This document shows positions 1-35,085 of a stretch of DNA of 58,900 nucleotides, piece after piece (the first letter of the stretch is position 1; each line of letters begins with the position of its first letter). The stretch is from the NCBI GenBank assembly GCA_032718475.1, contig JAUCBJ010008789.1:1-58900 (forward strand), written 5' to 3'. The position numbers and the translations under genes were made by a program. Below the pieces are notes generated by a model. That model searched no databases. It was not told where the DNA came from and was given only the letters and a program-made list of their open reading frames with translations. Source of the stretch: Nemertoderma westbladi. Taxonomy: Eukaryota > Animalia > Xenacoelomorpha.

Positions 1-555
1 CATGCTGGTTTCCGCACCATTGCAGGTGTATTATATTTCTATAGTGTTACCTCCTGAAATACTATACAATAGCGCCTACACCTGTGATACAATAGGCCTG
101 GTGTAATGGTGTTGGTGTACGTACGTATTTAATCTTTAATTTTTAATCCGCTACCGGTACTGGCTGACTGTTGTCTGGGTGTTTACCGCTTGTGTTTCCA
201 TCCACAATCGACATGTGCGTCGTAGTCCACCACGCAGTTGCCATTGGTTGGTGACTTGGTTTGTCTGTTGCCTGTCCGTCAACCTCACACTCTGACTACA
301 GGTCGAATGCGCAATGATCTGGCCATCTACCGGTACAAGGTGCCAGATGGGACGAGACAACATTGGGTTGATGAGAGGCGAGTCTGTGGTCTGTCTGCAC
401 GGATACCGGTCTGTCGTACCAAATATGTGTAAATATTGGTGTTTAGGTAATAATATAGTTGTGGACTGATCCTGTATAAATAACCGAATCCATCGATCAT
501 TTATTTAATTAAAAAATAAACCGGAATTTTGTTTCTTCTATTAATCAACCACATA

Positions 556-1290
556 ATGGCATCCAAAGACAAATTAGATATGAGTTTAGATGACATAATT
601 TCTACGAGTCGTGGTGGAGGGCGCGGCGGTGGTGGTGGTGGGCGTTGGAGGGGCGAGGGCGGTGGATTTAGGGGCGAGAGCGGTGGATTTAGGGGCGCGG
701 GGGGTGGAGGACGAGGCGGCTATGGTAGACCCACTCCCTACTCCCGTCCGCAGGCCCTCCCGGACCAATGGGAACACGATATGTTCTCGGATTCGGGGCC
801 CCCCGGTGCCAGCGCTCGTAGGTTCGGAGGTGGTTCCGACGGGACCGCTAAACTCCTTATCTCCAACCTCGATTGGGGCGTCAGCGACGCAGACGTGAAG
901 GAGTTGTTCTCCGAGTTCGGGGCGTTGCGTCGAGCAGCGATCCACTACGATAAATCGGGGAGGAGTTTGGGGACCGCGGAGGTTGTTTTCGAACGAAGAG
1001 GGGACGCAGTCCGAGCGATGAAGCAGTACAATGGGATCCCGTTGGATGGTCGAACCATGGAGATCCAGATGGCGTCCTCGGATGTCGGAGGATGGCGGGG
1101 CGGTGTGGGGGAAAAGGCCGCTAACGGGGGCTACGAGGATAATGGGGGGAGTGTTGGGGGTCGGTTAGGGGGAAGGGGCGGTCAGCGATATGGGGGCGAT
1201 CGATGGGGACGCGATAGGATCACGGCTGAGGATTTGGACGCCCAACTCGAAGCCTACACAGCCAATGCATCCCGATCCGCCTACACCTAG
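556..1290 (+). CDS. ALYREF: THO complex subunit 4 / Aly/REF mRNA export adaptor, single exon
   Basis: N-terminal UBM '[10 protein letters not shown]', RGG-rich arms, 'WEHDMF' motif, RRM ([23 protein letters not shown]...[16 protein letters not shown]...YNGIPLDGR) and C-terminal UBM '[12 protein letters not shown]'. First ATG at 556. Confidence 0.93.
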
Positions 1291-3656: not shown

Positions 3657-5009
3657 TTAAAACGGACTCGCCGTTAATATAACAGTATGGTCGACCCCTA
3701 AAGCCGCATCAATAACAGTCCGACCCATAATAACCCTCATGGGGAAACTGTGATCAGTTAGGTGTCCCAGACCCAGACAGCCACCAGTGTTGGTTCCCCA
3801 CATGTACAACTCCCCAGACGAGTTAATGGCACCGAAATGTTTCAAACCGCATCGGAGTTTAACAACCTTCGAGTCGTCGTCGTCGTTGGCTCGAAAAAAC
3901 ATCTCTGGAACTCGAGTAGGTACCGAGGATGACGTCACACGGGGCCCCAAGCCCAGGGTCCCGTGGCCCCAGGTGTAGACGCCGCCTCGGTCATCCACCA
4001 ACCCGCACACTGACTCGCCGCACGCTACATCCACCGCCGCCGCCGCTCCATGCGGCAACGGAATCCGCCGCGACCGAGGAAGTTGCGTCGACTCGGAAAC
4101 CGAACCGAACTGCCGGAACTCAGAGTTGCCCCATCCGAACAACTCGCCCGTCTCTGACACGGCGAGGTTACAATCCCCGAAGGTGGACACCTTGCAAACC
4201 CGATGTCCCACAATGTCCCCTACCACGTGAGTCGGGACGTAGTTCGTCGTGTAACCTCCATTACCAAGCTGTCCATCACCATTCCAACCAAAACAGAGAA
4301 CTTCGCGACTATCCGTTAGCAGTACAGTGTGATCTCTTCCGCAAACAATATCCTCAACCTTAAAATCGATATTAATCTTATGAATTAAACTATTTTCCGA
4401 GTACTTTTCTCCATCTATAATCGGTCTACCGCACTGTCCGAAAGTATTATTACCTAAAGTATAAACACTACCGTCTCCACACAGTACGACGGTATGAGAT
4501 CTACCGCACACAACCTTACGAATCTTCACCCCGGCGGGTAAACTTAACACGATCCGAGCGGGATTTATTGCAAAGTGTAGGTTATTTTCCCGGGAGTGTG
4601 GAGCAGGTTGGAAACCAAGTTGGCAGAATGTGTTTAGCCCCATTCCGTATAACTCACTCCTACTGCTTATTAAAGTAAACCCGTAACCAGCGGCGATGCT
4701 GCATACCTTGAGTTTAAGGTCCCGTAACACGTAGGGGGAACTCTGGTACTTGCGTGGTCTCAGGCGTTGTTTACGTTGGGGTTTAACGAACGTAGGGACC
4801 CCTAACGCCCCGGTGAAGGAATGCCCGCAGACGAATATTCGATAGATGGTGCGGTCTTGAGCTGGTTTGTTGGGGACGAATTCGTATGTGGGTATTTCTG
4901 TTGCTGAGGTGATATCCTTAGTCACAATGGTCCTGCCATCAGTGCCATGGAGTTTCCCATCAATATGAGTCAGGCGTGGGCGCCAAAGAATGTTAATATG
5001 ACGATACAT
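3657..5009 (-). CDS. RCC1L: RCC1-like protein (WBSCR16/RCC1L, mitochondrial), single exon
   Basis: Multiple RCC1 blades (VCGRSHTV, GNNTFGQCG, CGRDHT, GWNGDGQLG, WGNSEFRQ, WGHGTLGLG, CGLKHF, WGTN..GCLGLG, LGVDHT). 'G.S.TGALGVP' and 'AAGYGFTL' resemble RCC1L. Basic N-terminus is compatible with a transit peptide. Confidence 0.85.
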   Translation of the reverse strand: MYRHINILWRPRLTHIDGKLHGTDGRTIVTKDITSATEIPTYEFVPNKPAQDRTIYRIFVCGHSFTGALGVPTFVKPQRKQRLRPRKYQSSPYVLRDLKLKVCSIAAGYGFTLISSRSELYGMGLNTFCQLGFQPAPHSRENNLHFAINPARIVLSLPAGVKIRKVVCGRSHTVVLCGDGSVYTLGNNTFGQCGRPIIDGEKYSENSLIHKINIDFKVEDIVCGRDHTVLLTDSREVLCFGWNGDGQLGNGGYTTNYVPTHVVGDIVGHRVCKVSTFGDCNLAVSETGELFGWGNSEFRQFGSVSESTQLPRSRRIPLPHGAAAAVDVACGESVCGLVDDRGGVYTWGHGTLGLGPRVTSSSVPTRVPEMFFRANDDDDSKVVKLRCGLKHFGAINSSGELYMWGTNTGGCLGLGHLTDHSFPMRVIMGRTVIDAALGVDHTVILTASPF

Positions 5010-5504
5010 AATTTCTTAAGAAGCTGATTCCAACTGGATTCACATATTATTGTTTTGTAAAATGATTTACAAAAGCAATTTGAGTAGAGTGTAGAGAGCA
5101 ACTTGGCTGAGACTCAACTGCAACTTCGGTATACAATTCCCATTTCAAATCTCCCGCCATACAGCCATACATTTTATGGCTAGGAAATTAATTATATACA
5201 CCTACTATACACCTGCTGCCAGGTGCAGATGGCCGTGAAGTGCACATGAGAACACTCTACTCCTGACCAGCCATCGGTAGATCAACATCTGCCTGGCCAG
5301 GCCATATACAGATATACCCCTGCAGCCAAGTATATGGGTCCTTAATCCAGGACCAAGGGCGTCCTTCCTTATCACAGAATGTAGGGGGTCCTAGTTACAC
5401 GACCAGATTAGCCCTAGTAAGAGGGTCTATGCAGCCACAGGTGGCACCTCCTTAATGCTGCATGGAGGTTGCAAGTTTTCTTGTTAAATGACCTAGAATT
5501 TTAT

Positions 5505-6585: not shown

Positions 6586-6624
6586 CTACTGTAGGGTAAC
6601 ATACGGAAGCCCATAGCGGCCAGG

Positions 6625-7632
6625 AAACAAACATTAATGTGGGATACAAACATTAATGAGGAGCACATTAATGAGGGACACAAACATTAATGAGGGACAC
6701 AAACATTAATGAGGGACACAAACATTAATGAGGGGCACATTATTGAGGGACACAAACATTAATGAGGGACACAAACATTAATGAGGGACACAAACATTAA
6801 TGAAGGACACAAACATTAATGAGATACACAAACATTAATGAGGGGCACATTAATGAGGGACACAAACATTAATGAGGGACACAAACATTAATGAGGGACA
6901 CAAACATTAATGAAGGACACAAACATTAATGAGATACACAAACATTAATGAGGGACACAAACATTAATGAGGGACACAAACATTAATAAGGGACACAAAC
7001 ATTAATGTGGACACAAACATTGATGTGGGACACAAACATTAATGAAGGACACAAACATTAATGAGATACACAAACATTAATGAGGGACACAAACATTAAT
7101 GAGGGACACAAACATTAATGAGGGACACAAACATTAATGAGGGACACAAACATTAATGAGGGACACAAACATTAATGAGGGACACAAACATTAATGAGGG
7201 ACACAAACATTAATGAGGGACACAAACATTAATGAGGGACACAAACATTAATGAGGGACACAAACATTAATGAGGGACACAAACATTAATGAGGGACACA
7301 AACATTAATGAGGGACACAAACATTAATGAGGGACACAAACATTAATGAGGGACACAAACATTAATGAGGGACACAAACATTAATGAGGGACACAAACAT
7401 TAATGAGGGACACAAACATTAATGAGGGACACAAACATTAATGAGGGACACAAACATTAATGAGTGACACAAACATTAATGAAGGACACAAACATTAATG
7501 AGGGACACAAACATTAATGAGTGACACAAACATTAATGAAGGACACAAACATTAATGAGGGACACAAACATTAATGAGGGACACAAACATTAATGAGGGA
7601 CACAAACATTTATAAGGGACACATTAATGGGG
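6625..7632. repeat. 19-bp minisatellite (GGGACACAAACATTAATGA)n, roughly 50 units
   Basis: Direct head-to-tail repeats with no spacers and occasional variant units. Confidence 0.95.
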
Positions 7633-7679
7633 ACTGTGAGGTCCACAAAGAATGAACAAATCTCGTTCACACATTGTTG

Positions 7680-7935
7680 ACCCGTTGGGTCGTTTTACCA
7701 CTCCACTACTACGGGGTAACCCGATAACTGATCTGAGTATACAAGGAAGTGGCGTCCCGCGAGTTGGAACAAATCCAAAGGGGAGGATTGAAATGGACGC
7801 ATGGGGATGGAGTCATCCATAAACTTATCCTTGGGGTGGCTGCGAAGTAGACCCTGGCACGTGTCGCACTGCCCTACGAGGCGCTTGATGTCGGCGTTAA
7901 TGCTGGGCCAGTAAAGTAAACAGCAGTTCACGCCC
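7680..7935 (-). pseudogene. Ty3/Gypsy integrase relic
   Basis: 'YWPSINADIKRLVGQCDTCQ' (H2C2 zinc finger end) and 'RPFQ...DLFQLAGRHFLVYSDQLSGYP' (start of the rve core). Confidence 0.75.
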
Positions 7936-12004: not shown

Positions 12005-13280
12005 GGGCGAGCCACGAAGTTGGCGGAGCCTTAGCGAATTGACACTGTTAGGGGGTGGGTCAATTTATGCAAATAGTTGTCGTCGTCGTCGTCGTCGTCG
12101 TTGTCGTCGTCGTCGTTGTCGTCGTCGTCGTTGTCGTCGTCGTTACGATTTTGACATGCTAATAACTTTGTCGGATTTAAAGCTGCCAAGTTGAAAATTT
12201 GTAGGTATCAATATAAGCAAAAGTTGAGATTTTTGAGAGACTTTCAGACACCATCAGTGCAATGGTCTCCCGCTAGAGGGCCACATGTCTAAACATTAAA
12301 TGGCCACCCATTTCTTTGCTTTTAATCCGTTTAAGCTGAAACTTGGGAAGTATGTACTAGACCATTAGCTGTAAATTTCAAAGGAGGCTAATCTGTCTGC
12401 AGTTCTCCAGTCTGCCGCTAGAGGGCGAAATGTCCCGAATGTGAAATTATTCTTCCATTTAGTTGTTTATGATCTGATTACGCTGAAACTTGTCATATAT
12501 GTACTAGATGACATCCTGAGTCTTTGTGTGGATTGTAATCGGTCCGAAGTTTTCCAGTCTCCCGCTAGAGGGCCACATGTCTAAACATTAAATGGCCACC
12601 CATTTCTTTGCTTTTAATCCGTTTAAGCTGAAACTTGGGAAGTATGTACTAGACCATTAGCTGTAAATTTCAAAGGAGGCTAATCTGTCTGCAGTTCTCC
12701 AGTCTGCCGCTAGAGGGCGAAATGTCCCGAATGTGAAATTATTCTTCCATTTAGTTGTTTATGATCTGATTACGCTGAAACTTGTCATATATGTACTAGA
12801 AGACATCCTAAGTCTTTGTGTGGACAGTAATCGGTCCGGAGTTTTCGAGTCTGCCGCTAGAGGGCGAAATGTAGGAAAGTGATAACCTTTGCGAATTCCT
12901 TGATCTTAATCTATTTAAGCTGAATTTTGGAATATACAGTACCGGTATGTACTAGACCACATGCCTCGTCTTTGTGAGGAAGGTGATCGATCCGTAGTTC
13001 TTTAATATGCCGCTAGAGGGCTAAATGTATGAAAGTGAAAACCTTCCAACATTTCGTTATTTATGATCCGTCAATCGGAAACTTGGTAGATATGTAATAG
13101 ACCATAGGCTGTGGCTTTGTAGGGAAACTAATCCTTCCTTCTTCAGTTACCCAGTCTCCCGCTAGAGGGTTAACGTTTTCCGGGAAAATCTTCTCCTATG
13201 TTTTTATAATCCTTTCGAGTTGATACTTAGCATTAACTCATTTCACGTGCTGCGCGAAGGCCCCACTTCGTGTTCCGTTT
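12005..13280. mobile_element. Helentron/HINE-like element with (GTC)n microsatellite and ~146-bp tandem array
   Basis: Sub-terminal inverted match CACGAAGT...GCCTT.GCG / CGCGAAGGCCCCACTTCGTG, (GTC)n at 12079-12143, seven CCGCTAGAGGG anchors at 145-156 bp spacing. Confidence 0.55.
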
Positions 13281-13647
13281 ATATATCGTAGGGTGAGTGA
13301 GGGAGACTTGAACCCCAAAAGTTATAATCGCTCTAAAGAACAGATAAATGAATTTTTCGATGCCCTTTTAACTTTTTTACATTACATTTATGATTGCTAT
13401 CATTATGTTAGAGTTTGAGAATTTCAAATCTTAAACTTTTTTAATTAAACCAATTATTCGTATTTTCGAAAAAGCGTCCAGTCTCCCTCAATGGGGGGAG
13501 ACTTGACACCTAGGGTGGGAGACTTGAACCCCATCTCACATTCTTGTAAATTCGTTCAAAAATGCATAAGAAGTGTAATAATTACATGTTCAACATGTCG
13601 ATTTTCTAGTAGAGCAGAAAAATTTCAAGAAATGCGAATGTTAAATT

Positions 13648-14482
13648 GTGGCTGGCCACGAGAAAAGGGACCTTATGTCGCAAAACCTGATACTGAGATA
13701 ATCGCGTTTAAAGTTTCCCTCTATTTTTGGACAAATTTAATTGGATTATCAATTTAGAAATGTATAAAACGATGAGGGAAATTCAAATTGGTTCTGATAT
13801 TCAATATACCTAGGAAATAACTAATTACAAGAAGCAATATAAGATGTTGCAGTGTTGTATATAACACTGTCTTAGGGTTTTCATGTCTTAATTTAGGACT
13901 GTAATAAATTGTAATTGTACTACTGTAATATGTAGCTGTACTGTAGGCCTACAGTTATTTTTTAAATGCAATATGGCTGTCATTTTCTTAATTTATCTTC
14001 GTTAGTTCTTAAATTTTGTAATCCCAATAAAGAATTCAAAATACAAATAATTTTAAATTTTGTTAAAAAAATTTATCTTTTTGAAAAAATTTTAAATTAA
14101 AAAAAAATTTTTTTGGTTACATGTTTTTTTGGAAATTTTGCAAAATTTTGTTAAAATAGTTCATAAACAATATTAGTTTCAAAGTGTTAAAAGTTCTATA
14201 AAATGCCGAATAACATTGAGCTGCCTAACTATATAGTAAGAATTGGTATGATATAATTAATATTTTCAATTTTTTTAAATAATCGCTTATTATAACCGCT
14301 ATTAATAAATTTTTTTTGCTACCCGATTCACCTTCACATAAATCGCTATAACTTTTTTTGGAAATAGATATTGAGACACCGTTTTTTTTGTTAAAATCTC
14401 TGGAAAATTCTGCATCTCATATGCCTAATAACTCAAAATCGACCTCCGGTGACATAAGGTCCCTTTTCTCGTGGCCAGCCAC
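13648..14482 (+). mobile_element. MITE, Sola1-like (copy 1)
   Basis: 32-bp perfect TIR GTGGCTGGCCACGAGAAAAGGGACCTTATGTC; 4-bp TSD AATT. An AWWT target is typical of Sola1. Confidence 0.85.
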
Positions 14483-15336
14483 AATTGTTAAATTATTATC
14501 CCAAATTTTATAAAAATTTAGGTGGTCGTTCACATGGTTCTCCCAAAAAGAACTGAATAAATAATAGATCATTAAAACCGCATTAAAATTTAACGCGGGA
14601 AGGTACTTTTTATTAATGAATATTTTGTATAATTTTCAATCCAGGCACATATTAATTTTTTTCCTGTAATTCTATTGATGTGTGCCGCTTTCTGACGAAG
14701 TGGCATCTTGTTTAATCTGTCAATCACACAGTTGGCGGGCTACTAACTACATTGCAAAGAGGGAAGGCAGAGTTGGTTGGCTTGGCTGGGTTTATCAAGG
14801 CCTCTCTCTCTCTGGCCACTCCATTGTATTCACATTCCATTCATAGCTTGGTCTGTGTAAGTGCCGATCAACTAGTTGGAGTGCTCTGGTGTAATGGTTC
14901 TCTACGTGGGTGTATCTCTAGGTAGACGTCAGCATTGAAGGCTTCAAGTCTCCATCACACTCGGGCGTAATGTCTCCCCACATAGGCTTTTTTATATTAA
15001 TTGATATAATTTCAAAACGGCTGAACCAAAACTGGAAAACAATATATGGCAGGATAGTGCAATAATTAGTCAACACATGTTGTGAATTACAATTAACATA
15101 CAGTAAAATAAGGATGCGAATTTTCATTAGTTGTAAAGGGCAAAAATTTACTTTTGAACCCAGAAAAAGTTTATTGACAATAAAACAAAAAATAACCAAA
15201 AGGTAATAAAACATTGTTGCGCGGGTGTAGCCTACATGTATTTTACATATTTTTGAGCGGTATTTTTAAATAATTTACAATAGTTTTCGAGTTATTAAAA
15301 AAAATCAAGTCTCCCCTAAAGTCAAGTCTCCCTCAC

Positions 15337-16519
15337 TGTAAAAGCTTTTGCGGATTTAACCGGTTATTTTCCCCGCAAAGTACTCTGTAGTTGGTTTAAC
15401 AGGCAAAAAAGGCCGTGTCCTTACTGTACTGGTGTTTTAAGGGAAATAAAAAGCTATTTCTTCTGTATGTGTACTTTAGCGGACATAATTAGCAATTCTA
15501 TGACGCAATGCGCTGGATCCTCTTGAAACAGTGTAGTTACGACAGCTAACAGCTGAGCTGTACACGTGTAGATTTTCCCTTGTTCTCTGGTGTTTCTTTG
15601 TTCGGTCAACCAATCAGATCGATTCTCCTGCTTTTGTACAGAAACCTCCGAGAAATCGTGCAATGCATTATGGGTCAATGTTTACATTTTTGTCCTGAGC
15701 CTAGAAGACCGGCTTTTGGAATCTCTGTGTTTTTCAGTCTTTAGCCCAACATTAGTAGGCTTAATTATAGAACGTATATCTGTTATCATAACAAACCATA
15801 TCAAACAAACTTAACTTATCATACCAATTCATAACCATTCATACCTTAACATTTGTACTGCTGTTTACTGTCGGTTATTCATTATATCTGTTGATGGAAT
15901 ATTATATTTGGAATACTGATAAATAATTACAAACCCTCGATCTTCTTGATATACTGAAGGTTAGAGAGACCGGTTACATATAACGATTGCGACTTACATT
16001 AAAGTGGTTTGAAGTGAATCTAATGCTATTTCATAGGCACTACATGTATTGTCTGTTGTTCTCTTTATATGTGACTAAAATTAGTGAAGGTCGGCAGATC
16101 AGTGTGCAGCATTGTGCAGTATTGTGTATGATTGTGACTGATAAAAAAGCATCTCCTAAAGAATGCGCCATATACGTGAATCTATAGCCATCCCGTTGTG
16201 TCTAGTTTAAGTCATAACTCTGTTTACATATTTAGAGCGCCACGTCCTAAAGGAACTGTTAATATTTCCCGAAAGTGAATAATATTTGTCAGAGATTATA
16301 TATTACGATCAGTCGAATAATACAGTAGGCCTACACCGCAATACGGTTAAGCTTCCGAATCCAGTCTCCCGGGTATATCCAGCGGGTGAATGATCGCGCA
16401 TAGACTGGCTTCGGCTAATGTAGTGTATCAAATACTTGTCAGAGGCTAAAGACGATCTATTATCTAAAAGACATCCCAATTTGGCAGGTTAAACTGCTAA
16501 AGGTCTGAAAGCGCGAACA
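15337..16519 (+). repeat. 5' LTR of outer element
   Basis: TGTAAAAG...GCGCGAACA. Nearly identical to 52310-53491 (about 7-8 substitutions and 2 small indels seen by eye). Confidence 0.95.
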
Positions 16520-16531
16520 ATAACAGATATA
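16520..16531 (+). promoter_or_regulatory. non-tRNA primer-binding site (self-complementary to LTR 15775-15786)
   Basis: ATAACAGATATA directly follows the LTR and is the exact reverse complement of TATATCTGTTAT inside the LTR. No TGG start. Confidence 0.75.
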
Positions 16532-16799
16532 GCTTCTGTATTGCAGTAGGAAATAACGCTGAAGTACCGGTTAACCGGTACCTAGTAGGCCTGACTACCT
16601 AACCACCCGGACCGGTACCTACAGCAGTACAGGTACAGCAGTATTATTCGATTTGATAATTATATACCGGTAGGCCTTAATATTGAATCAGGGAGGGCCC
16701 GCCCTGGTTTTTTATTGAGATTTTACTTATTTCTGTCAGTTTTATTTATTTGTAGGCCAATATTGAGCAGAAGGCGTGTAAGCCTGCTCAGATTGTACA

Positions 16800-17377
16800 G
16801 ATAATTTGTAGGCCGGACTGTTGTCTGACTGTCGTTAAGTCTGAAGAGACTGTAGTGTGTGTAGAGCGTATGTCCGAAAAAGTACTAGTTAGGAAAGTAG
16901 GGGCTGCCAGTGCTGTGAGGTGAACCCCCTCGAAAGAATAAGTCGTACTACTCGGTTAGAACGCATACTAACTAACCATTTCGGAGTCTGCATATACTGT
17001 AGTGTATTTAGGCTTGATAGTAGTCTGCCAGCGTTTGGTCTGTACTTTGTTTGTGTAGTCTGTACGGGTAGCGTAATATTTCTTATTTAGATAATTTGTA
17101 GGCTGTAATTTGCCTGGCTGTTGTTAGGTCTGAAGAGATTTCGGTGTGTGTAGAGTGTATGTCCGATAAAGTGCCAGTTGGGAACGTAGGGGCTTCCAGA
17201 GCTGTGAGGTAAACCCCCTCGAAAGAATAAGTCGTACTACTCGGTTAGAACGCATACTAACTAACCATTTCGGAGTCTGCATATACCGTAGTTTGTTTAG
17301 GCTTGATAGTAGTCTGTCAGTATTTGGTCTGCATTTTGTTTGAGTGGTCTGTACGCGTAGCGTAATATTTATTATTC
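16800..17377 (+). repeat. ~289-bp tandem duplication in outer 5' leader
   Basis: Two diverged copies starting GATAATTTGTAGGC at about 16800 and 17090, sharing AACCCCCTCGAAAGAATAAGTCGTACTACTCGGTTAGAACGCATAC. Confidence 0.85.
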
Positions 17378-18395
17378 AGAGTTTATGCGATTATTCGCAA
17401 CATTCATATCCCCAAGTTTATTCCTACAGTAATTGTGCTTGTTATATATACCGTTATAGTTAAACTAACCCCGGTACTACATCAGGGCTGCTTGGCGTAG
17501 GTAAAGACTGGTGATTTTGTGCCCCAGTCACTCCAGCAGATGCCGTGGTTCTTTTAGCTGTTCAAGTATTTTTAACTACTGATTATTTGTTGTATAAGTA
17601 CTTGTACCTAATTTAGGGTTTAGTGTACAGTGCTTTCCGAAGGTGATTAGTGTGTAGGCAGTATATTTGTGTTGTAAAGTGGTTAATAGGCACGTTGGTT
17701 CTGGTAGACCGCGGTAATTAACTTCTAGGTAGGAACACTCCGTGATACATAACGTAGTACTTATAGCGATACGGCTATAAGTCGTCAGACGGTGGTATTT
17801 TTCCTATCTGGACAACGCAGTATATTTACTACTACTTATTATTTTCAAATACCGTAGTACCCTGTCCGTTGTAATAACCAGATAATCTAACCCTTTGTTA
17901 GGCTGGTTTGTAGACTTCTTGTAAAATTACCCTAAAAATTCGTACGTGTAATTTTTGTGTTTATTTAGAGATTGTAATCTCACCCGAATTGTATGTAATT
18001 TGTAGTATTAAGTAACTTAGGTAAATTAGAATTATTTGTTTTAGTGTCCAACAGGTAGCACTCCACTGAGAGCGCACAGCTTCTGTGTAGTGACTCCCCC
18101 CAGAAATAATAACATTTATTTCAAATATTGACAAAAACCCATTTTAACGGGTATATATATTATAAATCAACTCAAATGATTTATAAATAGTAGGCCTGCC
18201 ATACAATAATTCGGTCTTAATATCAGTTGGACTACTGCTTAAAGAACGGTAATAAAGTAAGTTAAAGTATAGAATTATATTCCCTAAATGCCGTGGATTT
18301 TCAAAATTTGTATTTATTCGAATTAACTTTGTTAAAAGATTACTTTGAGTCCTCATTTGCATTTGTTATATCTATTGTACGATGTTTAGTCAAGT

Positions 18396-18482
18396 GGTTC
18401 AGTAGCTCAGTCGGTAGAGCGTTGGAAATTATATGTGTAGTAGGTATTGAGTTCGAATCCTAGTAAGTGCGAATTATTTTTT
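18396..18482 (+). ncRNA. tRNA-derived Pol III-like unit inside inner LTR
   Basis: Box A TAGCTCAGTCGG with intact D-stem GCTC/GAGC, box B GTTCGAATCC, then a T-run. Acceptor and anticodon stems do not pair, so this is not a functional tRNA. Confidence 0.6.
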
Positions 18483-18550
18483 GTGCAGAATTTCAACTCA
18501 TTTAAATTGACCGCTACAAATTAAATTGCATTTGTCTGTACCTAGATTAA

Positions 18551-18696
18551 CCAATGAGACTGTAGTTATTAGATTGTAACCAATGTCGTACAAGTTATAT
18601 ATTAGCTGGACCAATAGCTATCTTTAAAAACCTGTTAGAACCTATAGAACAATCGAGAATTTTCTCGATTGATTGCGGCACTAATTTGGTATAAAA
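18551..18696 (+). promoter_or_regulatory. triple CCAAT plus TATA promoter module in inner LTR
   Basis: CCAAT at 18551, 18580 and 18611 (about 30-bp spacing) and TATAAAA at 18690. Confidence 0.55.
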
Positions 18697-20175
18697 GGTG
18701 CGATTTCGTTCATTAGTTATATATCTTATATCAATCTCTCTTCTGTATTACTCAATATTTCAATCTTGTTTATTCTGTCATTAGTTTTCAGATTACATTT
18801 TGTATTATTATCTGCAATAAATTCAGAAATACCGCTACCTGCTTTTCTTTTCACCATGATTCACTACGGTGAACACACTTAGGAACAGGATGGCCGGCTA
18901 GAGATCGGGCCGCAGCAATGAACGGGAACATCAAGGGAATGTAGACAGGAGACAACCCGCAATACCATCTCAGTTATTCGCCCATCGCCTGAAAGGTTAG
19001 ACAGCGTTCGATGCCTTGCTACCTAAGCGTAAGACCAAAGATCAAAGGTAGAAGTAGTGACACGCTGTACGCCAAAAATTACATTTAGGGACTGTACTGT
19101 CTTAATTCAGGAAAACCCACAGTAGACCTTCATATTCCTACGGGGGGGGGGGGGGGGGGGAGAAAGAGCAGGCAGATACTAGTACGCAGATAGGACGTAG
19201 GCACACCGGTACGAAGCATACACATTGGTAGGGTGCAGCAAACTGTACGCCTAACTCTTGCTAAGTACAGGTGCGTTTGCGACTATTTGTAGTACAACGG
19301 TGTTCATTGCATTAGAACTTGTAGGCTAGGAGGGTTGCTGTGTTTCACCTGAATTGGGATTGTACCGTTCAGGCGGTAGGGCAGTTTACGACTAGGCGCA
19401 AATAAATTGAGGCTATTAGGGATATACTAACATCTACCGTGTCCCCGCCAACGTCCTGATAGGAAGTTACCCAGCCTACCTAGGTGACTAAAATTCTAGA
19501 TAAGAGCCAGGATAGCTATTTGTAACCGCACGCCTACAGCAGTAAACTAACACATTTCTTCTTAGTATTAGGGGCCTGGTAAATTAAAAATTGCCGAATT
19601 CTGGGTGTAGCATTAACCTTATGCCTGAATTTGAGTCCTGGAAATACGCAAGAGGGGAAGGAACCTTATCATTCGTGAGTATTGGACCTACAAGTTACAA
19701 AATTAGAATATTTGTAAAATGCACACCGTACCCAGTAATTATATATATGAAGGAGCTAAACTGCTTTGACTGTTCAGAATTAAAACACGCGCGTTAGAAA
19801 TTATTTACACCTCAAAATATATAAAATTAACTTTTGTCCGTACTGTGCTTTGCCCGCTAGTTAGACATCTCCAAATCTCTGCCCCTAGCTAGCGTCTCTT
19901 TCGCCCAACCATATAAATCACACCGCGGCAAAGTATACGAGCCTCTTAGTCCGTCAGTGAGTCAGCCTGATTTTAGGATTCGCTGCGCGGGATTTTGTTT
20001 TATCGAAGTTTGTCTGCTCGTAGACTGTTTTCTGCCTCACCGGTTATAAGAGATCGATACTGCAATATATTCGCTTACTTAGAGTTTACTGTTTTGGTGA
20101 GAAGGTCGGATTTATGATTTGATTCACAAACTTTACAGTAGGATATTGCAGGTATTGTTACTGTCTCTTCTAATA

Positions 20176-20186
20176 GTAGGAATATG
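20176..20186 (+). promoter_or_regulatory. non-tRNA primer-binding site (self-complementary to LTR 19131-19141)
   Basis: GTAGGAATATG directly follows the LTR and is the exact reverse complement of CATATTCCTAC in the LTR. Confidence 0.75.
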
Positions 20187-20815
20187 TGATTATTTTAACA
20201 TATTTCCTAAAATAGTAGGAATATGTTTTACTGAACTACGGTTCGGTAGGACTAAAGTTATTTGAAAATTTTGTATTTTGAGGTAAAAGTTTATATTTGA
20301 TTAGCTAAGTGCTAATTTTTTGAAATAAAATTTGATTTGAACCGCGTGTAAAATATTTTGGAATTGAATACCGGTGTTTAAAAGGGTTTAAATACCATAT
20401 TGTACCGGTACAAAATTTTTCGTAAAAGTAAAACCTAACTCTTTTGTTTTTCAGGATTCAGAACTCATTTCTAGACTGTAACGGGAGCAAGACCGTGTTT
20501 AGCAAGTTTGGGAGATAGATAACTCAACAACTTTGGTTGGGAAAATCGCGCTTCGTCCGCAACGTTAAAAACGGAAAGGTTCACGTTCGGTTTGTATCTG
20601 GGAATCTGTTTTTCTGGAGAATTATTGGAGTGGGTGAGTTCGAAAAGTTGCATAAATAAGTTAGGCATTACCGTATTAGTTAAAATTATTGTGGGTTCCA
20701 CTGTCTCAAGTATTTATGCATTCCGTATGATTTCTTTGTTCATTGCTGAATTAGTCCGTATTATTGTATTTAATTTACCTTTTGATAACGCATATCGTTA
20801 TCCGATTTAATTGTT

Positions 20816-20940
20816 ATAAAATTGGCCGCTAGGCTAATTTTATTATATACTTATTCCGTGACATTTATTTGCTGTAAAATTGGCCGTCTAGGCTAATTTT
20901 ATCCATCTGCTATAAAATCGGCCGGTAGGCTAATTTTATA
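20816..20940 (+). repeat. three hairpin repeats TAAAATTGGCC-loop-GGCTAATTTTA upstream of gag
   Basis: Copies at about 20816, 20875 and 20911; each is self-complementary with a variable loop. Confidence 0.8.
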
Positions 20941-22792
20941 TGACTGTAATTAGTACCGTTTAGATATAAATACGGTAAATTTGATACTTTGACACTCACA
21001 TTTTACTTGACTTACAACTACCGAAATGAGTGACAAACAAGACTATACGAAGAATACATCTACCGACTATGACTCATGTGACGCGGATAAGTCAGCAGCG
21101 GAAGAACTACAGGGGAAGACTCGCGAGCCTACCGAACCTACACCGTGTGCGTCACCAGTACATCCAACGGGAGTACCGGATGCCGTAGTACGAGGCGACG
21201 GCAGGACCGAGGACTTTCTAACTGTTCCGCAACCTAGATACAGGGAAACGGACATGGTAAGTTCAGCAGGAAGCCAGGAGAGTGTGGTTAGAAGCGTCGG
21301 CGGTTACATGGCGCATATTACCAGGAGTATTGGAGAAGGCCAACGCATATTAGACGAGTTGACCGCTCCGATGTCTCGATTCGAGTTCTACACCCTCCAG
21401 GTTAGAGTACAAAGTAGAGTACATAAGTCCGTAGATAACCTTATCAGTCTACAAGATCTAGCTAGACAGAGACAGGACATGGATACTCAACTTAGAATCC
21501 TCGAGAAACTAATGATCGCTAGAGAGAAACTGATTCAGTTTAAGTCGACGATTAGGCAGATACAACAGGAACAAGCAGACCAGTTGTTAGGTGAGTCAGT
21601 TTCGGACGAATTATTACAACCCGAGGAAGAACAGGAACTGTACCGACTGGATGGACAATTGAAACATCTGACGGACCACTTACGCATGTGCGGCGAGGAT
21701 GTCGGAGATTGGGAAACCGTGCCGGAGGCTACGAGGGAAACTTCACTCGCACAAATCGAATTAGTACCAGGAATACTAAATCAATCGTTGGTAAGTATTC
21801 GTAGCAAAATCGGCGAGGGAAGTATGGTCACGTCAGAAGTTGCTCGACAACAACAAGAGTTCTACCGACAACGACGAGAAATGGAAGAACAAGCTCAACT
21901 TCTAGTGATGCAGGCAGCAGTAGAGGAAGAGAAGCTACGCGTTGCGAATGTAGCGAGAATCTCTCATCTACAGGAACAAGCTGAATTAGAAGCAGCTGAA
22001 GTAGAAAGGTTAGAGGTAGACATTTCCCAACGAACGGCAGCGGCTGATTTAGCGCAACGAAACGCAGCGGCAGAATTAGAGCGACAAACGGCAGCGGCGG
22101 AATTAGAGCGAGAAAGGTTAGTTTCGGAAGCACGGGCCGAAATGAAAACACGGCAAATAAAAGCTCAATCAGCGATACGACAAGCAGAGTTTGAGGCGCA
22201 ACGACAACAAACGGAACAACGAGAGAAGACAGCTAAACTTCATTTCGAACTCGAGAAGAAGGCGAGAGAATTAGCGAACGCCGAGGAAGATCTGGATCAA
22301 AAGGCCTGCGATCGATCAATGAGATCTCGAGACGGACATGACTTGGACCAGATAGAGGTAAGACATCGCCAAATTCAGGAACGGAAGAAGGAAGGAAGCG
22401 TAGGAGCACCCGGACGGGAGCGACAATTAGTAAAAGACTTGTGTCAACGATTCCCACAAGTAACTCCTATGTTTGCACCAATTATGACTAAGGAACCTGT
22501 TTCGATTGCGGGTAGTAGTGATATTTCTCCTATCCATGGTGCGACGGAACACAGGTTGGTTATTCCGGACAAATTGATACCGTCAAGAGCAACGTCGTCG
22601 CCTATTTTGAAAGTCAAGGTAAGTAACCCACCGACTACCGATCGTAGTAGTTTATTGACCGGACCAGCACTACTAACGACAAAACAGGTGAGTCCACCTT
22701 TGACACCTAAACCGGTTACGCACTACGAATACCCAATGACGTTTAGGCCTACAAGGCCTTTGGATTCAAACGCTGTCGTCCGACCACCGTTC

Positions 22793-22945
22793 AACCAGTT
22801 TACATCGCAATCTACGACTTCGAGGAAGACTTGTGAGCCTACCGAACAACGGAGACCAGTGGATACGCGACCGAACCAGTTTACATCGCAATCTACGACT
22901 TCGAGGAAGACTTGTGAGCCTACCGAATAACGGAGACCAGTGGAT
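22793..22945 (+). repeat. 81-bp tandem duplication in gag
   Basis: AACCAGTTTACATCGCAATCTACGACTTCGAGGAAGACTTGTGAGCCTACCGAA(C/T)AACGGAGACCAGTGGAT twice. Copy 2 has CAA>TAA. Confidence 0.9.
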
Positions 22946-25900
22946 GATGTTCCGAAACGAAACGTCAGAATTCGTACGACGCAACGGACGCGAGCACGTC
23001 GACCACCATATCCAGATGATAGTAGTACTTCGAGCGAATCGGATTACCCGAAACGCGAGGTATTTAGAACAGGGGCGGCCGATGAATATAAACGCGAGCG
23101 TTCAGACAACTCCTTTGTAGACAATCCTCCACGAAATACACCAACACAGAAGGCGTTACAACCAACGGACGCAATCAGTACACAACAGTTCGCCGACATC
23201 CTGCGACCAGTTGTTAACAAGTTGGCTCAGATTGAGGAACGTCTGGATGAAGCTCAAACCGATAGTTCGAGGAACACTGAATTCGAACACAATAGACACC
23301 CGAAGGAACCACAAAGACCGGTACCTTCAAAGAACGCATCGTATCAGGGAACAGCGCCAAGAAGGGACATCAACCAGATTACCAACCAAGGACGCGAAAC
23401 TCTGAACGTTGCCGAGGAGATAGCGAAATTCGCAGCTAGACAAGGACTACCGGTGCAACAACCACCTAAGTTTTCCGGTAGCTCAAAACACTGGCACACT
23501 TTCGTAGACTATATCGAATCTCAGATCGCCGTGTGCGCCTTTACATCACGGGAGAAGTTTAATTACCTGCTTCAAACGTTGTCGGGAGAACCTAAACGTT
23601 TGGCGGAGACCTTCGTTGGTGTACCGGACACCTTTGAACTAGCGTACGATCGTTTAACTTCGATCTACGGAGGTACAGTCAGCATGGCCAGGTCAGTGAT
23701 AGAGGAACTCTGTAAGGGAGGGGCTATTACTAAACCCGTCGACTTATTGAAACTGGCTGACGAAATAAAGAACGCTATCACTACTTTGAGATCCATTGGA
23801 CAACTTGACTACGGGAATACCCCTACAGTCCTATTAAAGATCATAGGACGACTCCACCATCGACTTCGTCGGGAGTGGAGGAAGATCGAATACCAGCGGG
23901 AAGAGCGGGGTGGATTCTTAAAACTGGAAGATGTGTACCTTTTGATATCCAGGGAAGCAGTGGTAGAAACTCGATCCAACTACACTGACCAGCACATCGT
24001 AGCAGAAGGAATCACCTTGCCATCCTCAAACCGACAAAAACCCCAGACAACATCCACCAAGACGGCCACTTACGCCACACCGACGAAAACATGACAATTC
24101 TCGGACGGTAGTAGGGTATCTGCGCCCATTGGGATAAAACAGACTAGACAGCAACTCAGTACAGACTTCAGCGGCTGCCAATACTGCGAGCATTTAGGCA
24201 AGCGGTATATCGGTCACAAGTTGAGAGGTTGTCGACAGTTTCGCGAGTTAAACTCGGAAGAACGACGGCTGCAGATACGGCCATTGGACTCTTGTTGGCG
24301 GTGTACGCGACACGGACACATCCGCAAAGATTGCCCAAATACCGACACTTGTCCATCCTGTGGACGCAACCACGACGGTCTGCTCCACACAGACAGCCAC
24401 ACGCCGACAAAACGCTTCGCCAGGGAACACCCGGAAGCAGCAGCGAAATGTAATACGGCCTACAAGAATCGAGAATCGAAAACGACTCCAACCTTCGTGA
24501 CACATATTAAGGATTGCTTCTCAGAACAATCCGGATCGTCGGACGAAGAGTCGGAAGACGACGACGTATATTCCGATGGAGACGAACAACCATCAATCGC
24601 GCTTCTGACGACTGACCAACTAAAGGGATTCAGCGTAATTCCGATTAAGATTACTGGCACAAAAGGAAGCAAGAGAATCTATGCTATCCTGGATTCAGCC
24701 TCATCTCACAGCTACGTGGATGAGCAGATAGCTGACGTCGTGACGGATCTCAGACAAGGTAAGCGCGTCAGTTACACCGTAAGTAGTATGCACGGACAAC
24801 GTGCAATACCGGTGACACAAGTTAAGTTAAACTTAGACACTCTTCTTCCAAAATCGCAACACAGCGAAAAGGAGAGGTCTGTGTTACCCTTTAAGGATTT
24901 GACTTTTGCGGCCACCAAGGACTTTAGTAACCTACTAGGTCCTGTCCCAGAACAATCCTTGGAGGACCGTAAGTATTTCAGACACCTTGGTGTACCTGAA
25001 TGTCCTGTCAATTATAGATCGGTAGCAATGCTGATCGGGACAGACCAATTCAACCTACATCAAGTGTGGGAAACCAGACCATCGGCAGTCGTAGCGGGAA
25101 ACGCATACGCCTGTAGAACGCCGATAGGGTGGTATACTCGAGCGCCTGTGCGCACACTGGACATAAGTGACGAGGAAGACGATATACAAAGTACATGTAG
25201 TTTATTAACTACAACGTCGACTCATTCCTTTTCACACGAAGTAGACTATACTACCTTACATACAAAACATGACAGACGTGTAACTAGTATGATAAGTCAC
25301 AAGGAGCAGCTAATCCACCAGGTGAGTTTAGAACTTGGGGAGAAGACGAGTCAGCCAGAGATTCCATCGACGACAGATGATAACGCCGGAAGGCTTGCGA
25401 GTCTACCTACCCCAATAACCTCAACAATACCCGTCGATATCGATGATGACGCGTTAAGAAATCATCAAGTGGAACAAGCTGCATTGGACAAAGAATTAAC
25501 GGAGAAGACTATCAGGTGGTTAGAACAAGATACAGCTGAACCTGGTAGCTACGAACCATGTATGCCGGAACAGGAGAAACAATCTTTGAAGATCATGGAA
25601 GATACTATCCGCCAGACGAAAGACGGACATTATGAGGTAGGGATGTTATGGCGTAGCCAAAGTCCTAAACTTATAAATAACTATCCACTAGCTTTAAGAC
25701 GACTACACTCAATACGACAACGTCTATTAAAGGACGAGAAAGCCCATCTGCAGTACAACACTCAGATGGAGACGTATTTGTCCAAGGGATACGCTATCCG
25801 AATGACTAACCCAGAGAGAGTGACTGACCAGACATACTACTTGCCACATCACTTCGTGAGACACCCCGACAAACCAGACAAAGTACGTGTAGTCAATGAC

Positions 25901-27439
25901 TGTGCGGCTCTGTTTGAGGGAATGTCCCTCAATAGCGAGTTGATGGATGGACCAAACATGAATAATTATCTTATGGGGGTGATTATGCGCTTCCGTCAGC
26001 GTCAAGTAGCTTTTACTTGCGACGTCGAAGCTATGATTCACCAAGTGAGAGCGTTAGAGCGAGACAGAGACAGTTTGAGGTTCCTCTGGTATCCGAAAGG
26101 AGACTTAAGTCTACCACCGGCGACTTACCAAATGCAAGTTCGCGTTTTCGGTGCCAGGGACAGCCCAAACTGTACGATGTACGCCCTAAAGCAAGCCGCT
26201 AAGGATCAGAAACACATGTATGACCCAGAGATAATTAAGATTGTGGAACGTGACTTTTACGTCGACGACGGTTTACAGAGTTGTGACACAGTAGAACGTG
26301 CTATAACAGTAGCACATCAATTACGGGACTGCTTAGCGGGCGGAGGTTTTAACCTCACCAAATTCGCCTCAAACAGTGCCGAATTAGTAGACTCATTCGG
26401 AACGACTGAGCGTGGAGGTGGTGACATAGACCTAGAGTTCGAACCACTACCGACGACCAAGGTGTTGGGGCTCTTTTGGGACCCAAACACGGACAACTTT
26501 CGAGTGAAGGTGAGACTGGACAGTCAAGAAAACACACTGACAAAGAGATCATGCTTGTCAAAATTGAGCCGATTGTTTGATCCATTAGGATTCATCAGTC
26601 CAATAATACTGCAAGCCCGCATTTATATGCGCAGTATTTGGAAGGATGGACTGACATGGGACGAGCCGATCTCATCAGACCAAGTGGACTTATGGAAGAC
26701 CTGGGAGGCAGAATTATCTTCGCTAGAGGATTATTCCATACCCAGAGTCTACTTTCCATTACAAACAACATTTCCTGACAACTTGGAATTACATTGTTTT
26801 TCCGACGCCAGTGACAACAGCTTTGGTGTGGCAGCGTACTTGCGCAGACAAGTAGACTCAGAAGAATTCGATGTTTCACTCATTACTTCTAAGGCAAAAA
26901 CAATGCCTACTAAGTATATGACGACACCACGAGCTGAGCTACAAGCCGCAACCCTGTCAACCACAATCGTGAACCTTATACAGACGGAACTACAGTCAAG
27001 TTTACAGATATTTTATTGGACTGACGCGACGTTGGTTTTATTTTACATAAACAACGACACACTTGAATTCAAGACATTCGTAGCTAACCGTCGCGCAGAA
27101 ATTCTAGACCGTTCAATAAAGGAAGATTGGCGACATTGTCCCGGACCACAAAACCCAGCCGATATTGCGTCAAGAGGAATGATGCCTGAGGAATTCTGTA
27201 AACCGGAGAACAAAGAATTTTGGCAACACGGACCACAATTCTTACAAAGATCAACACTAAATTGGCCACCACTATATGACAACAAGTCTAACACTATCCC
27301 TAAAGACGCGGAAATCAAAAAACCAAAGAAAGGGAAAGCAAAGAAAAGGACGGCGGCTAAACTCAAGAAAAAACCGAAGGCGAAATGGAAAGATATAACT
27401 TCAAAGGTCAAGAACGGAAGACTTGCGAGCCTTTCTACA

Positions 27440-27962
27440 CCAGACATATCGCCAGACGGTCAACCAGACACGTTACTAGACGGTCAACCAGACGTTTTGC
27501 CAGACATGTCACAAAATGTTCTACCAGACACTAGTAACATACTGACAAATAGTAAAGCCGCAGTTTCTCTATTGGAGCGGCCTTCTATTGACAAACAACC
27601 AGATACGTTACTAGACGGTCAACCAGACGTTTTGCCAGACACGTCACTAGATATTTCGCCGGATGTTCCGCGAAACATTTTACCAGACATGTCACAAAAT
27701 GTTCTACCAGACACTAGTAACGTATTGACAAATAGTAAAGCCGCAGTTTCTCTATTGGAGCGGCCTTCTATTGACAAACAACCAGATATGTTACCAGACG
27801 GTCAACCAGACGTTTTGCCAGACACGTCACTAGATATTTCGCCGGATGTTCCGCGAAACATTTTACCAGACATGTCACAAAATGTTCTACCAGACACTAG
27901 TAACGTATTGACAAATAGTAAAGCCGCAGTTTCTCTATTGGAGCGGCCTTGTATTGACAAAC
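27440..27962 (+). repeat. in-frame coding tandem repeat (135/183/183-bp units built from xxPD tetrapeptides) between RNase H and integrase
   Basis: QPDTLLDGQPDVLPD...SNVLTNSKAAVSLLERPSIDK occurs three times. Confidence 0.9.
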
Positions 27963-30537
27963 TACCAATTTTGACACACTTGAGCAACCATAAGCACGGT
28001 GAAACCTCATGTATTACAGATGTGGGTAGTACCTACGCTAATGTAAATACAGGTGTTACTCTGCGCTCAAGAGACATACCAAACTTGCAACCTATGGTGA
28101 GACCCGGGATTAATATCGGCAGAAAATTAAGTTTACCGAAACCCACCGACCCCATAGAGTTCAAACCACCATTAACGATCGACTTACAAAGTACTGACAA
28201 CCAGGGTAAGAAGACGAAGAAGGACAAATTACTTGTAGACCCGGACGGATCAACAGTCAACAAGGGAATACCTACCGGCGGACCCGTGGGCCCTTCTAGT
28301 AAATCAAAACCTTCCAAATTCTCCATTGACTTACCTGATGACGTCACAAATACTCACGTCGACCGTATTGTAAACTTAACAGACTCTTGGACAAACGCTT
28401 GCCGAAAATTAGCGTGGATTGTACGTTTTGTACAATACGTTAAAGGCAAACGCGACTTTACACGTCGACTTACATTGGCTGAGATTGACAGGTGTGAGAT
28501 TAAATTAATTCGCCATTACCAACTGCGATATTTCGCACGCGAATTCACATCTATAAATCAAGGTCAACCAATCAAGTCGTCACCAATATTGAGTTGGAGT
28601 CCGATAATTTATAATGGCTTAATTTGTCATAAATCTCGGCTTCAAAACATTGACTTTAACACAAACTTTAGATACCCAATAATAATACCGCAGCATCACG
28701 AACTACAACGTGCAATGATACTGGACGCACATTTACATCTGAAACACGCTGGAAGACACCACTGTCTTTCCTACTTACGTACAAGATTTGTATTAATTAG
28801 ACCCAGTAAAGCATTAAGTTCAGTGACACGTACGTGTATTATTTGTAAAAAGGTACATTCTAGAATAGGTACCCAAGAAATGAGTGAACTTCCACAAGCA
28901 CGACTTCAAGCATTCAGACCACCTTTTACAGAGACTGGAATTGATTGCTTTGGTCCCATACATACGAAACGTGGACGTATACTAGTAAAACGCTGGGGAC
29001 TGATTTTCACATGTATGTCCAGTAGGGCAGTTCATATTGAACGTGTGATGGATCTTTCCACCAACGCGTTTATACTAGCATTGCGGCGATTTATCGCTAG
29101 ACGCGGACTAGTAAAATGCTTGTACTCAGACCAAGGGACAAACTTTGTTGGTGCTCGAAATGAGATTGCTAGAGCCTTTAAGAAATTAGATCATGATCAA
29201 ATCTCAAACGAACTACGTCCTTACAAGATTGTTTGGAAGTTTAATCCTCCAGATAGTCCATGGAGAGGCAGAGTCTGGGAGAGATTGATTAGATCTATAA
29301 AGACAGCCATGGCAAAGGTCATTCCAGTAAACCACTTATTGACAGACGACCAACTGACAACACTGTTTGTTGAAATCGAGGCAATACTAAATACTAGACC
29401 AATAGTATTAGTACCCGATGACAAACAATCTCAGTTTGCTTTGACACCGGCACACCTGCTAATGCAGGCACCGACCACATTGACGCCTATTTCTATTCCA
29501 ATAGAAGGCGATAGCTACGGTAGAAAAGCGTGGAAAATCACGCAACTACTAGCTAACAAATTCTGGGAAATATGGCAAAACCATTATTTGCCCTCTATTT
29601 CTGCCAGAACAACTTGGTACAATAACACCCGCGCATTAAAGCCGGGAGATCACGTGCTGTTAGCGGAAGTGAATCTAAAAAGACGCTTCTGGATAACAGG
29701 TGTAATTTTAACCACACATCCATCTATGGATGGAGTGACAAGAACTGTGACGGTACGGACAATTGACGGTCGTACAGTAGACAGACCGACTCAACGTCTC
29801 GTACTTCTTGAAGAGACTCGTAACGAATCTGGAGATTACAAATCTCCACCTAATATTAGTAAATAATTAGGAGTTTACAAATAGATTTCCACGTACCTGT
29901 ACACTGTAGTAAGGACAGCGGTAGAATTCCATTGTCTTTATATGTGAACATTGAGGGTAGTACCCTTATGTGTCACATAGGAGCGGGATTTGTAGGTATA
30001 AGAAATGGAATTCTACTTGGAACTCACAATATTGAGACATTTTCGAAATTTTAGACAATCCATTTGGATTTGAAAAATTTTTAAAATTTTCTCCAGTGAA
30101 TAGATTTCAGGGTACAGTCGGGTGGAACTTAAAATTAGAGAAACAAGAGAGGCCAAGAGAGGCCTCTTGCGAGCCTTTCTTAAAATTTTAATTAAATTTT
30201 ACACGGTCTTGTTTCAATAAGTTACGTCAATAAATAGACTCCCCTATATTTATTACTAATTCTTGATTGCTTATTTTCTGATAATAGTTTGGGATCAAAA
30301 AGTGAGTATTTTAGACTCACAGCCAGTTTAGCCCAAATTCGTTTTTTATTTCGGCAAAAAATTTTAGATAAGAAGCAGCGTGTCATTAAAGAAACCCTAG
30401 ATCTTAGGCTATGGGTAGGAGGTTAGAGCGTTGTCGAGCCAAAAGGGCAGACGAAACTCTCACGTCTCCTCACAACTAACTACAAACTCTGTTGTATTCC
30501 CTCTAGTAGTAATGATTATGTAACTACACCTCTAATT

Positions 30538-33500: not shown

Positions 33501-34263
33501 CCAATATGACGAACTTATCGAGGTAGTCGATATTTTGCCCCACGACAGTGGATTCCGAGTAGTGCGCGAGTATCTATTACAGATTCACCCGGATAACAAA
33601 AACACGTGGAATTTTCAGAAAGTCGTTAATCGCATCACGTATGGTAAATTCGATCGTTTCCGAACTGAAAAGCGGAATAAAGGAGCTTGGTTAACCGTCG
33701 CATGGGCGTACCGAGCCGCGTTTTACCATAAACGTATATGAGCGAGCGTATTCGAGGAAGAGGAGGTCCTAGAGGCGACAAATATACCAGCCACTCCGGT
33801 TGCGCCGTCTGCACGTCACCCTCGGGAGGACGGACAGGGTAGGATCATACGGGTCCAGAAAGTGGGCCAACAGTTAAAGAAGTCTATTAATATAGAAGAA
33901 CGCAAGGGAGCTGAGCCGACCATTCGAATTACTCGGGATACGGTATCGCTTCCTAGAGAACCAACAGGAGGATCGGGACACACACCAGCTGATCAGAAGG
34001 GGGCGCAAGCTACTCTTGGGTCTGCGTCGTCCGCTTCTCGCGCGTTCCCAGACGTTCTACCAACTGTAGTGACAACTGATCGGTCACGAGGAATCGGTCG
34101 AGGTTTTGGGATGCCAAATAGACGAATTTGCGAGGAAATAGTCGCACCGTCTCTCAACGTCCAAACGAAACCAGTGACTCGCCCCACGAGTCCCATATCG
34201 CGAGCAAAGTCACCTGTGCGCAGTTTTCGAGGACGCGGCAGGGCTCGATCAACAAAGCGATAA
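30538..34263 (+). pseudogene. inner ORF3: zinc-finger region, DEDDy-like 3'-5' exonuclease, three CCHC knuckles, basic tail; in-frame stops at 32971 and 33739
   Basis: ORFs 30538, 33064 and 33862 share a frame. ExoI 'FYDNEG', 'IQIRAADGVLHVF', 'LPKMVRNMILDKTVVKIGSGVREDL' (ExoII), 'YVDT', ExoIII-like 'YLAIE'. Knuckles CGKC..GH...C, CGWC..SH...C, CTCC..GH...C. Colinear with the outer ORF3. Confidence 0.75.
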
Positions 34264-35075: not shown

Positions 35076-35085
35076 CATGGAGCGG
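35076..35085 (+). promoter_or_regulatory. short polypurine tract of inner element
   Basis: ATGGAGCGG abuts the 3' LTR; the same GGAGCGG abuts the outer 3' LTR. Confidence 0.6.

Follow-up and report, generated by a model that had tools for sequence, protein, structure and literature searches.

How does a long terminal repeat (LTR) retrotransposon start minus-strand DNA synthesis if no tRNA primer can anneal next to its 5′ LTR? The question is raised by two retrotransposons in a stretch of 58,900 nucleotides (nt) from Nemertoderma westbladi (assembly GCA_032718475.1, contig JAUCBJ010008789.1, positions 1 to 58,900 of the forward strand), which we analyzed at its full length and refer to as the window. 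Both are BEL/Pao elements and they are nested, the inner element (18268–37840) sitting in the leader of the outer one (15337–53491). Immediately after each 5′ LTR lies a short site that is complementary to a segment of that same LTR. We consider it likely that both elements prime minus-strand DNA from this segment of their own LTR RNA instead of from a host tRNA, as had been proposed from the letters of the window (below, the original prediction).

Results

Each 5′ LTR is followed by a site complementary to a segment within it

The complementarity on which the original prediction was built is present at the coordinates claimed. In the outer element, the 12 nt at 16520–16531 (+) are the exact reverse complement of the predicted self-primer segment at 15775–15786 (+), and in the inner element the 11 nt at 20176–20186 (+) are the exact reverse complement of the segment at 19131–19141 (+). 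Both sites directly adjoin the 5′ LTR, starting with the base that follows it, and neither match can be extended. The letters of the two segments recur in the 3′ LTRs, at 52754 (outer) and 36794 (inner). As had also been stated, no TGG-type site is present: the first TGG lies at +186 in the outer element and +184 in the inner, with none within 180 nt, which leaves a CCA-ended primer nowhere to anneal. The two LTRs are unrelated in sequence, each site matching the LTR of the other element over just 6 and 5 nt, and a comparison of the two LTR-leader regions gave no motif of note in common (best E 0.36). The shared ATAT at positions 2–5 of both segments, and the initiator-like TCATATT in which the inner segment lies (19130–19136), are likewise as described. 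A run of about 20 G residues (19142–19161) stands directly 3′ of the inner segment and is one G shorter in the 3′ LTR.

Could such matches arise by chance? In Markov-2 resampling of each element's own LTR, the same 12-mer appeared in 30 of 20,000 cases (outer) and the same 11-mer in 15 of 20,000 (inner). When 600 downstream offsets served as controls, offset 0 alone reached 12 nt for the outer element; for the inner element, 5 of 600 reached 11 nt, these being offset 0, a duplicate at +39 and three unrelated offsets. These results confirm that the self-complementary feature is real and non-random. That in two elements with unrelated LTRs the site matches exactly and at a defined position, in each case the element's own LTR and not the other's, counts in favor of self-priming. 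In both elements a near-complement of the site lies shortly downstream, allowing local hairpins; in the inner element (20199–20225, +) it is followed by a second exact copy of the site (20215–20225), a duplication that some contigs of the inner family skip (joint 20170–20212 in sequencing run X3). A second, weaker site in the outer LTR, at 15883 (10 nt), was rejected, as its pairing costs 7.9 kcal/mol when forced.

Self-pairing sites occur in relatives that lack a TGG-type site

As relatives we took the best 80 of 572 confirmed loci from one scan of metagenome contigs, with reverse transcriptase (RT) identities of 33–44%. A repeat flanking the RT was present in 24 of the 80 and fixed the LTR end in nine, of which L053 was dropped as a duplicate of L051. 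Among the remaining eight, neither of the two TGG-type relatives has a self-match (contiguous 5, spliced 0), and all six relatives without TGG have one, within 0–3 nt of the LTR end. The match in L073 is contiguous, 10 nt long and at offset 0. In L014, L015, L032, L035 and L071, a match of 11–15 nt at offset 2–3 exists only across a predicted GT–AG intron in the LTR, which points to pairing at the level of RNA. These introns (72–164 nt) are predicted from sequence only, and in four of the five relatives the search used the LTR copy at the 3′ end. The match of L032 is preceded, at a distance of about 30 nt, by a TATA box, which would make the first exon about 5 nt long. A spliced primer was rejected for the two window elements, for which the best spliced match is 0 and 7 nt and the match is contiguous instead.

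Sites were also compared with the LTRs of other elements: of 90 such cross pairs, one gave the longest contiguous match, of 10 nt, and spliced matches reached 11 in two pairs, formed by the two relatives with a site in common. When the DNA upstream of gag was searched blind, 12 of 51 loci gave a spliced match, compared with 7 of 510 shuffles; 29 of the 80 loci were excluded for having too little upstream DNA, several matches are copies of one family, and the misses include contigs without a 5′ LTR. Further relatives of the spliced type are L013, L019, L025, L028, L045, L059 and L063, and a TGG site is present in L010, L040, L051 and L052. All 16 tabulated predicted sites begin with purine-T (14 GT, 2 AT). 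In viral contigs, no related loci were found by protein, alignment or LTR-end pattern, and a scan for inverted repeats following any CA, with no anchor, gave too much noise to be of use.

The distribution of sites follows the RT tree. In an unrooted IQ-TREE tree of 20 site-labelled rows, the four TGG-type rows fall on one side of a branch with 100/99 support, and the window pair and 14 self-pairing rows fall on the other; the labels of L040 and L057 were taken from the TGG motif alone, their LTR ends not being fixed by a repeat. The nearest row to the window pair, outside the pair itself, is L073, which is also of the contiguous type. The pair forms its own long-branched clade both here and in a 94-row FastTree tree (support 1.0). 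A label shuffle on the tree (73 of 500) counted just six labelled rows and is uninformative. Thus, self-pairing tracks the absence of TGG across the relatives and across the split in the RT tree. The self-pairing lineage appears to be wider than the window pair, and most self-pairing relatives, but not the pair itself, appear to use a splice-assembled segment.

Covariation between site and segment had been proposed as a check. Between families, compensatory change is found; within the outer family, it cannot be read from the variants listed, as described next.

Sequence variation and RNA folding weigh in part against self-priming

Several observations speak against the self-priming of the window elements. 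The main weakness is polymorphism in the outer family for which we can read no compensation. Variation was read from the contigs of four runs, with 40 of 202 variants listed. Position 16524, within the outer site, differs in 37–43% of the depth in runs X1 and X3, and position 16525 in 70–81%. The change at 16525 keeps a G–U pair; that at 16524, which lies five bases from where the primer is predicted to end, would cause a mismatch unless it is compensated. Neither partner position, 15782 or 15781, appears among the 40 of 202 variants listed. In X1 and X3, G>T changes reach 12% at just two places, one of which is 16442, so that the compensations needed at 15782 and 16538 are not both present at that level. 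The window copy diverges from most other copies right after 15787, and alignments there may be clipped. The stretch that follows (15787–15860) is A/C-rich and hypervariable; depth drops about 250-fold, and other copies carry different letters. In run X5, a loose end after 16506 marks a sister family with a similar LTR end and different letters at the position of the primer site. The inner sites are not among the 40 of 800 variants listed for that family, which carries no weight.

Folding gives a divided picture. In favor of self-priming, the inner segment and site form a helix with a probability of 0.93–1.0 when the RNA is folded to 20200. When it is folded to 20260, the segment prefers the second copy of the site at 20215–20225 (0.87–0.97, 10 of 11 pairs), and the copy adjacent to the LTR pairs at 0.03 and forms a local hairpin. 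The outer helix has a probability of 0.0 in an 826-nt fold and costs 4.2 kcal/mol when forced; the whole outer fold is no better than shuffles (z −0.70). Folds that span 800–1100 nt are weak evidence in either direction.

According to the available part of a study of Tf1 (bioRxiv 10.1101/2022.12.06.519325), that element requires two side duplexes besides the primer helix, and in the window this three-duplex pretzel is suggested for the outer element only (p 0.005 and 0.06). There, the LTR stretch at 16329–16353 (+) is predicted to pair with the leader at 16532–16551 (−22.6 kcal/mol, with 1 of 200 shuffles as low), and the LTR end is predicted to form a weaker duplex with 16390–16407 (12 of 200 shuffles as low); both count in favor of self-priming. 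Position 16344, in the first of these duplexes, varies (68–93%). Side duplexes were not seen in the inner element (p 0.66 and 0.96) or in L073 (p 0.88 and 0.31). Neither segment has a TATA box about 30 nt upstream. The trees also carry cautions: in the FastTree tree the position of the window pair has a support of 0.275 and is unresolved, and in the IQ-TREE tree the TGG-type L051 has a very long branch.

Self-priming is nevertheless the reading with the best support, and the original prediction that these elements self-prime is borne out in part. Comparative support has come from the relatives and from the split in the RT tree, the outer helix is disfavored by folding, and self-priming is still something that we infer.

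Anatomy of the two elements and their surroundings

The outer 5′ LTR (15337–16519, +; 1183 bp) has TG..CA ends, is 98.3% identical to the 3′ LTR (52310–53491, +) and is part of an element with a 5-bp target-site duplication (TSD) on both sides. The inner 5′ LTR (18268–20175, +; 1908 bp) is 99.1% identical to its 3′ LTR (35086–37840, +) over 1873 bp; the 5-bp TSD is at 18263–18267 and 37841–37845, and the start at 18268 is additionally backed by a loose end in run X4. The inner LTRs, which have this clean TSD, start and finish in TA, not TG..CA. A purine tract precedes the outer 3′ LTR, and its last seven bases are those of the inner tract. The inner 3′ LTR is split, near 35128–35970, by the insertion of a terminal-inverted-repeat element of about 840 bp, a second copy of which is at 13644–14492 (95.9% identity; apparent 2-bp TSD). 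By coordinate arithmetic, each retrotransposon is about 18.6–18.7 kb once insertions are subtracted.

The inner gag-pol (21011–29866, +) encodes DUF1759, Peptidase_A17, an integrase zinc finger and DUF5641, and has in-frame stops at 22928 and 24092. The outer gag-pol (38325–46338, +) is interrupted by in-frame stops at two positions, 40449 and 41097, and changes frame near 44548–44786. Pfam identified DUF1759, Peptidase_A17, Integrase_H2C2 and DUF5641 in both elements, in the order protease, RT, RNase H, integrase. By their Gag and Pol domains, LTRs, purine tract and TSD, both are BEL/Pao elements (Belpaoviridae). Their RT–RNase H regions are about 44% identical to each other. The best database homologues are about 43% identical, the best 120 all have Peptidase_A17, and where a source is named, it is mostly a marine invertebrate. 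The sequencing runs that carry the two families contain them in abundance, depth not being copy number. The inner element also contains three in-frame 183-bp repeats between RNase H and integrase (27439–27987).

Each element has an additional open reading frame (ORF) 3′ of gag-pol, at 30427–33741 (+; in-frame stop at 32971) in the inner element and 48993–52232 (+; 1079 codons) in the outer. The products are 28% identical (E 1e-42), contain Cys/His clusters and weakly resemble DEDDy 3′–5′ exonucleases. A search of representative sequences gave one relative, P0121 (E 1e-4); a word-index search gave no homologue, and the PDB gave no match. Pfam did not match the window proteins, which are not env-like by this measure, and matched P0121 at E 0.2. 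The Atlas match (0.91) is to a cluster that is 41% DNA_pol_A_exo1, and the ExoI–III acidic motifs align by eye, the third appearing to be Glu instead of Asp. Structure models (pLDDT, the predicted local distance difference test, of 29 and 33) were unusable.

Outside the elements, the window contains two host genes, one at 520–1290 (+) encoding an ALYREF-like protein with RRM plus FoP domains, and one at 3657–5015 (−) encoding an RCC1-repeat protein. There is a 19-bp tandem array at about 6600–7700 and a 146-bp array at 12265–13169.

Discussion

If the two elements self-prime, how might the primer be made? By analogy with Tf1, the likeliest route would use the 5′ end of the RNA and RNase H. Transcription would start at or just before the segment, upstream of the poly(A)-like hexamers at 15998 (outer) and 19401 (inner), so that the segment would form the 5′ end of the repeated region (R). 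The RNA would then loop back over about 730 nt (outer) or 1030 nt (inner), and the segment would pair with the site. The RNase H of the element would most likely make a cut directly 3′ of the segment, freeing a 3′ OH that is paired to the first base after the LTR. Extension by RT through the unique 5′ region (U5) and R would create a DNA end exactly at the end of the LTR.

It is possible that self-priming does not start from the RNA 5′ end. The segment could be internal, or be supplied in trans as a short LTR transcript, with its 3′ end trimmed, perhaps by the product of the extra ORF. This would be a variant within self-priming, not an addition to it, and we regard it as improbable. It would accommodate the long loops and the disfavored outer cis helix, and both elements do carry homologous extra ORFs that resemble 3′–5′ exonucleases. 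Against trimming, in the self-pairing L073 and L014 pol is separated from the 3′ LTR by just a few hundred bases, too few for such an ORF, the assignment as a nuclease is weak, and DEDDy ORFs occur in unrelated retroelements (PMC5408684, available part). A role for the extra ORF in making the primer end is speculative.

An alternative that we judge to be about equally improbable is that the pairing is selected for a structural or regulatory purpose, such as packaging, dimerization or a switch with the local hairpins, and that another RNA acts as primer. That a local hairpin partner competes for each site, and that the inner site has a second copy, would fit such a role. In addition, fungal GalEa elements of the Copia superfamily, which also lack a tRNA site, carry a hairpin at this place and have no known primer according to the accessible text of PMC5445492. 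However, nothing requires a structural helix to begin exactly where the LTR ends in two elements with unrelated LTRs, or within 0–3 nt of that point in six relatives, or to exclude TGG sites across a split in the RT tree. Moreover, the 180 nt after each LTR contain no visible alternative primer site.

Could the sites instead bind an internal fragment of a host tRNA, the matches to the LTR being secondary? Read as RNA, the last seven bases of both segments fit pyrimidine-U-NNN-A, which is the anticodon-loop pattern of tRNAs, although this reading is post hoc. Priming by half-tRNAs is known in the Copia lineages Osser, Bryco and Bianca (PMC6317226, available part). Nevertheless, we consider tRNA fragments very unlikely, since the exact matches to the LTR would be left unexplained, the 16 tabulated sites are too diverse for one or two tRNAs, and no tRNA or Rfam match was found in the site region of the window.

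Finally, a chance match or relic inverted duplication without function is barely credible: AT-rich LTRs of 1.2 and 1.9 kb do give 10–11-nt matches at a few of 600 offsets, but the product of the two null frequencies is about 1e-6 (about 1e-5 with the offset control), and relatives show the pattern again.

On balance, we also favor a broader form of self-priming, in which a large branch of BEL/Pao has abandoned tRNA priming and self-primes in two interconvertible forms. A direct LTR primer would be used by the two giant elements and L073, and a splice-assembled primer by most of the relatives examined. Across much of a third LTR superfamily, self-priming would then be the norm, and not a curiosity of Tf1/sushi elements. 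If the window elements self-prime, the mechanism is present in each of the three LTR superfamilies and, in BEL/Pao, sets apart one side of a deep split, which is relevant to the evolutionary order of tRNA priming and self-priming. Such elements would escape control by tRNA supply or tRNA fragments, and annotation pipelines that demand a tRNA site would miss or mislabel a branch of animal retrotransposons. The window pair, from two young and abundant families, offers the simple, unspliced form with exact coordinates.

How do these elements compare with known systems? According to the International Committee on Taxonomy of Viruses (ICTV) profile of Belpaoviridae, replication in this family is poorly understood and tRNA priming is assumed; the profile gives an 18-nt site for tRNA-Arg or tRNA-Gly, genomes of 4.2–10 kb and LTRs of 0.2–1.2 kb (PMC8742986). 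The window elements share with the family DUF1759, Peptidase_A17, the integrase zinc finger and DUF5641 in a gypsy-like order, as well as LTRs, a purine tract and a 5-bp TSD. They differ from the profile (PMC8742986) in lacking a tRNA site, in being about twice the upper genome size, in the 1.9-kb TA..TA LTR of the inner element and in a third ORF without likeness to env by Pfam. Our literature search, whose scope left out most subscription papers, Repbase and supplements, found no report of self-priming in BEL/Pao. Term searches of the available portions of BEL/Pao papers (PMC554778, PMC3118150, PMC2774666, PMC6238403) returned no text on tRNA or a primer-binding site (PBS). Other literature available in part comprises PMC4600332, PMC7175516, PMC3601003, PMC6934838, PMC4558846 and PMC8220671. 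What we predict is a known mechanism in a superfamily in which we found no description of it.

Three groups of elements offer likenesses. Juno and Vesta of bdelloids, which belong to other lineages, share an extra 3′ ORF that resembles DEDDy 3′–5′ exonucleases, a likeness by description only; neither PBS nor priming occurs in the available part of the text (PMC5408684). In the plant Ty1/copia elements TAR, Houba and Osr-1, self-priming has been predicted from a match of at least 10 nt located 0–5 bp after the LTR (PMC6317226, available part), and both window elements have such a match, of 12 and 11 nt at offset 0. These plant elements differ in superfamily and host, and in the accessible part of that work self-priming is there, too, a prediction only. 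A parallel in the predicted mechanism is with the Ty3/gypsy chromoviruses Tf1, Tf2, Tj1, Tosmo, the wider Tf1/sushi group and Tcn1, which, like the window pair, have no tRNA site and in which about 11 nt after the LTR complement a segment of the LTR. Unlike Tf1, the window elements have the domains of another superfamily, BEL/Pao, no match to a chromodomain, and much longer LTRs and loops. The pair are thus not members of Tf1/sushi, and the likeness is in the predicted way of working only.

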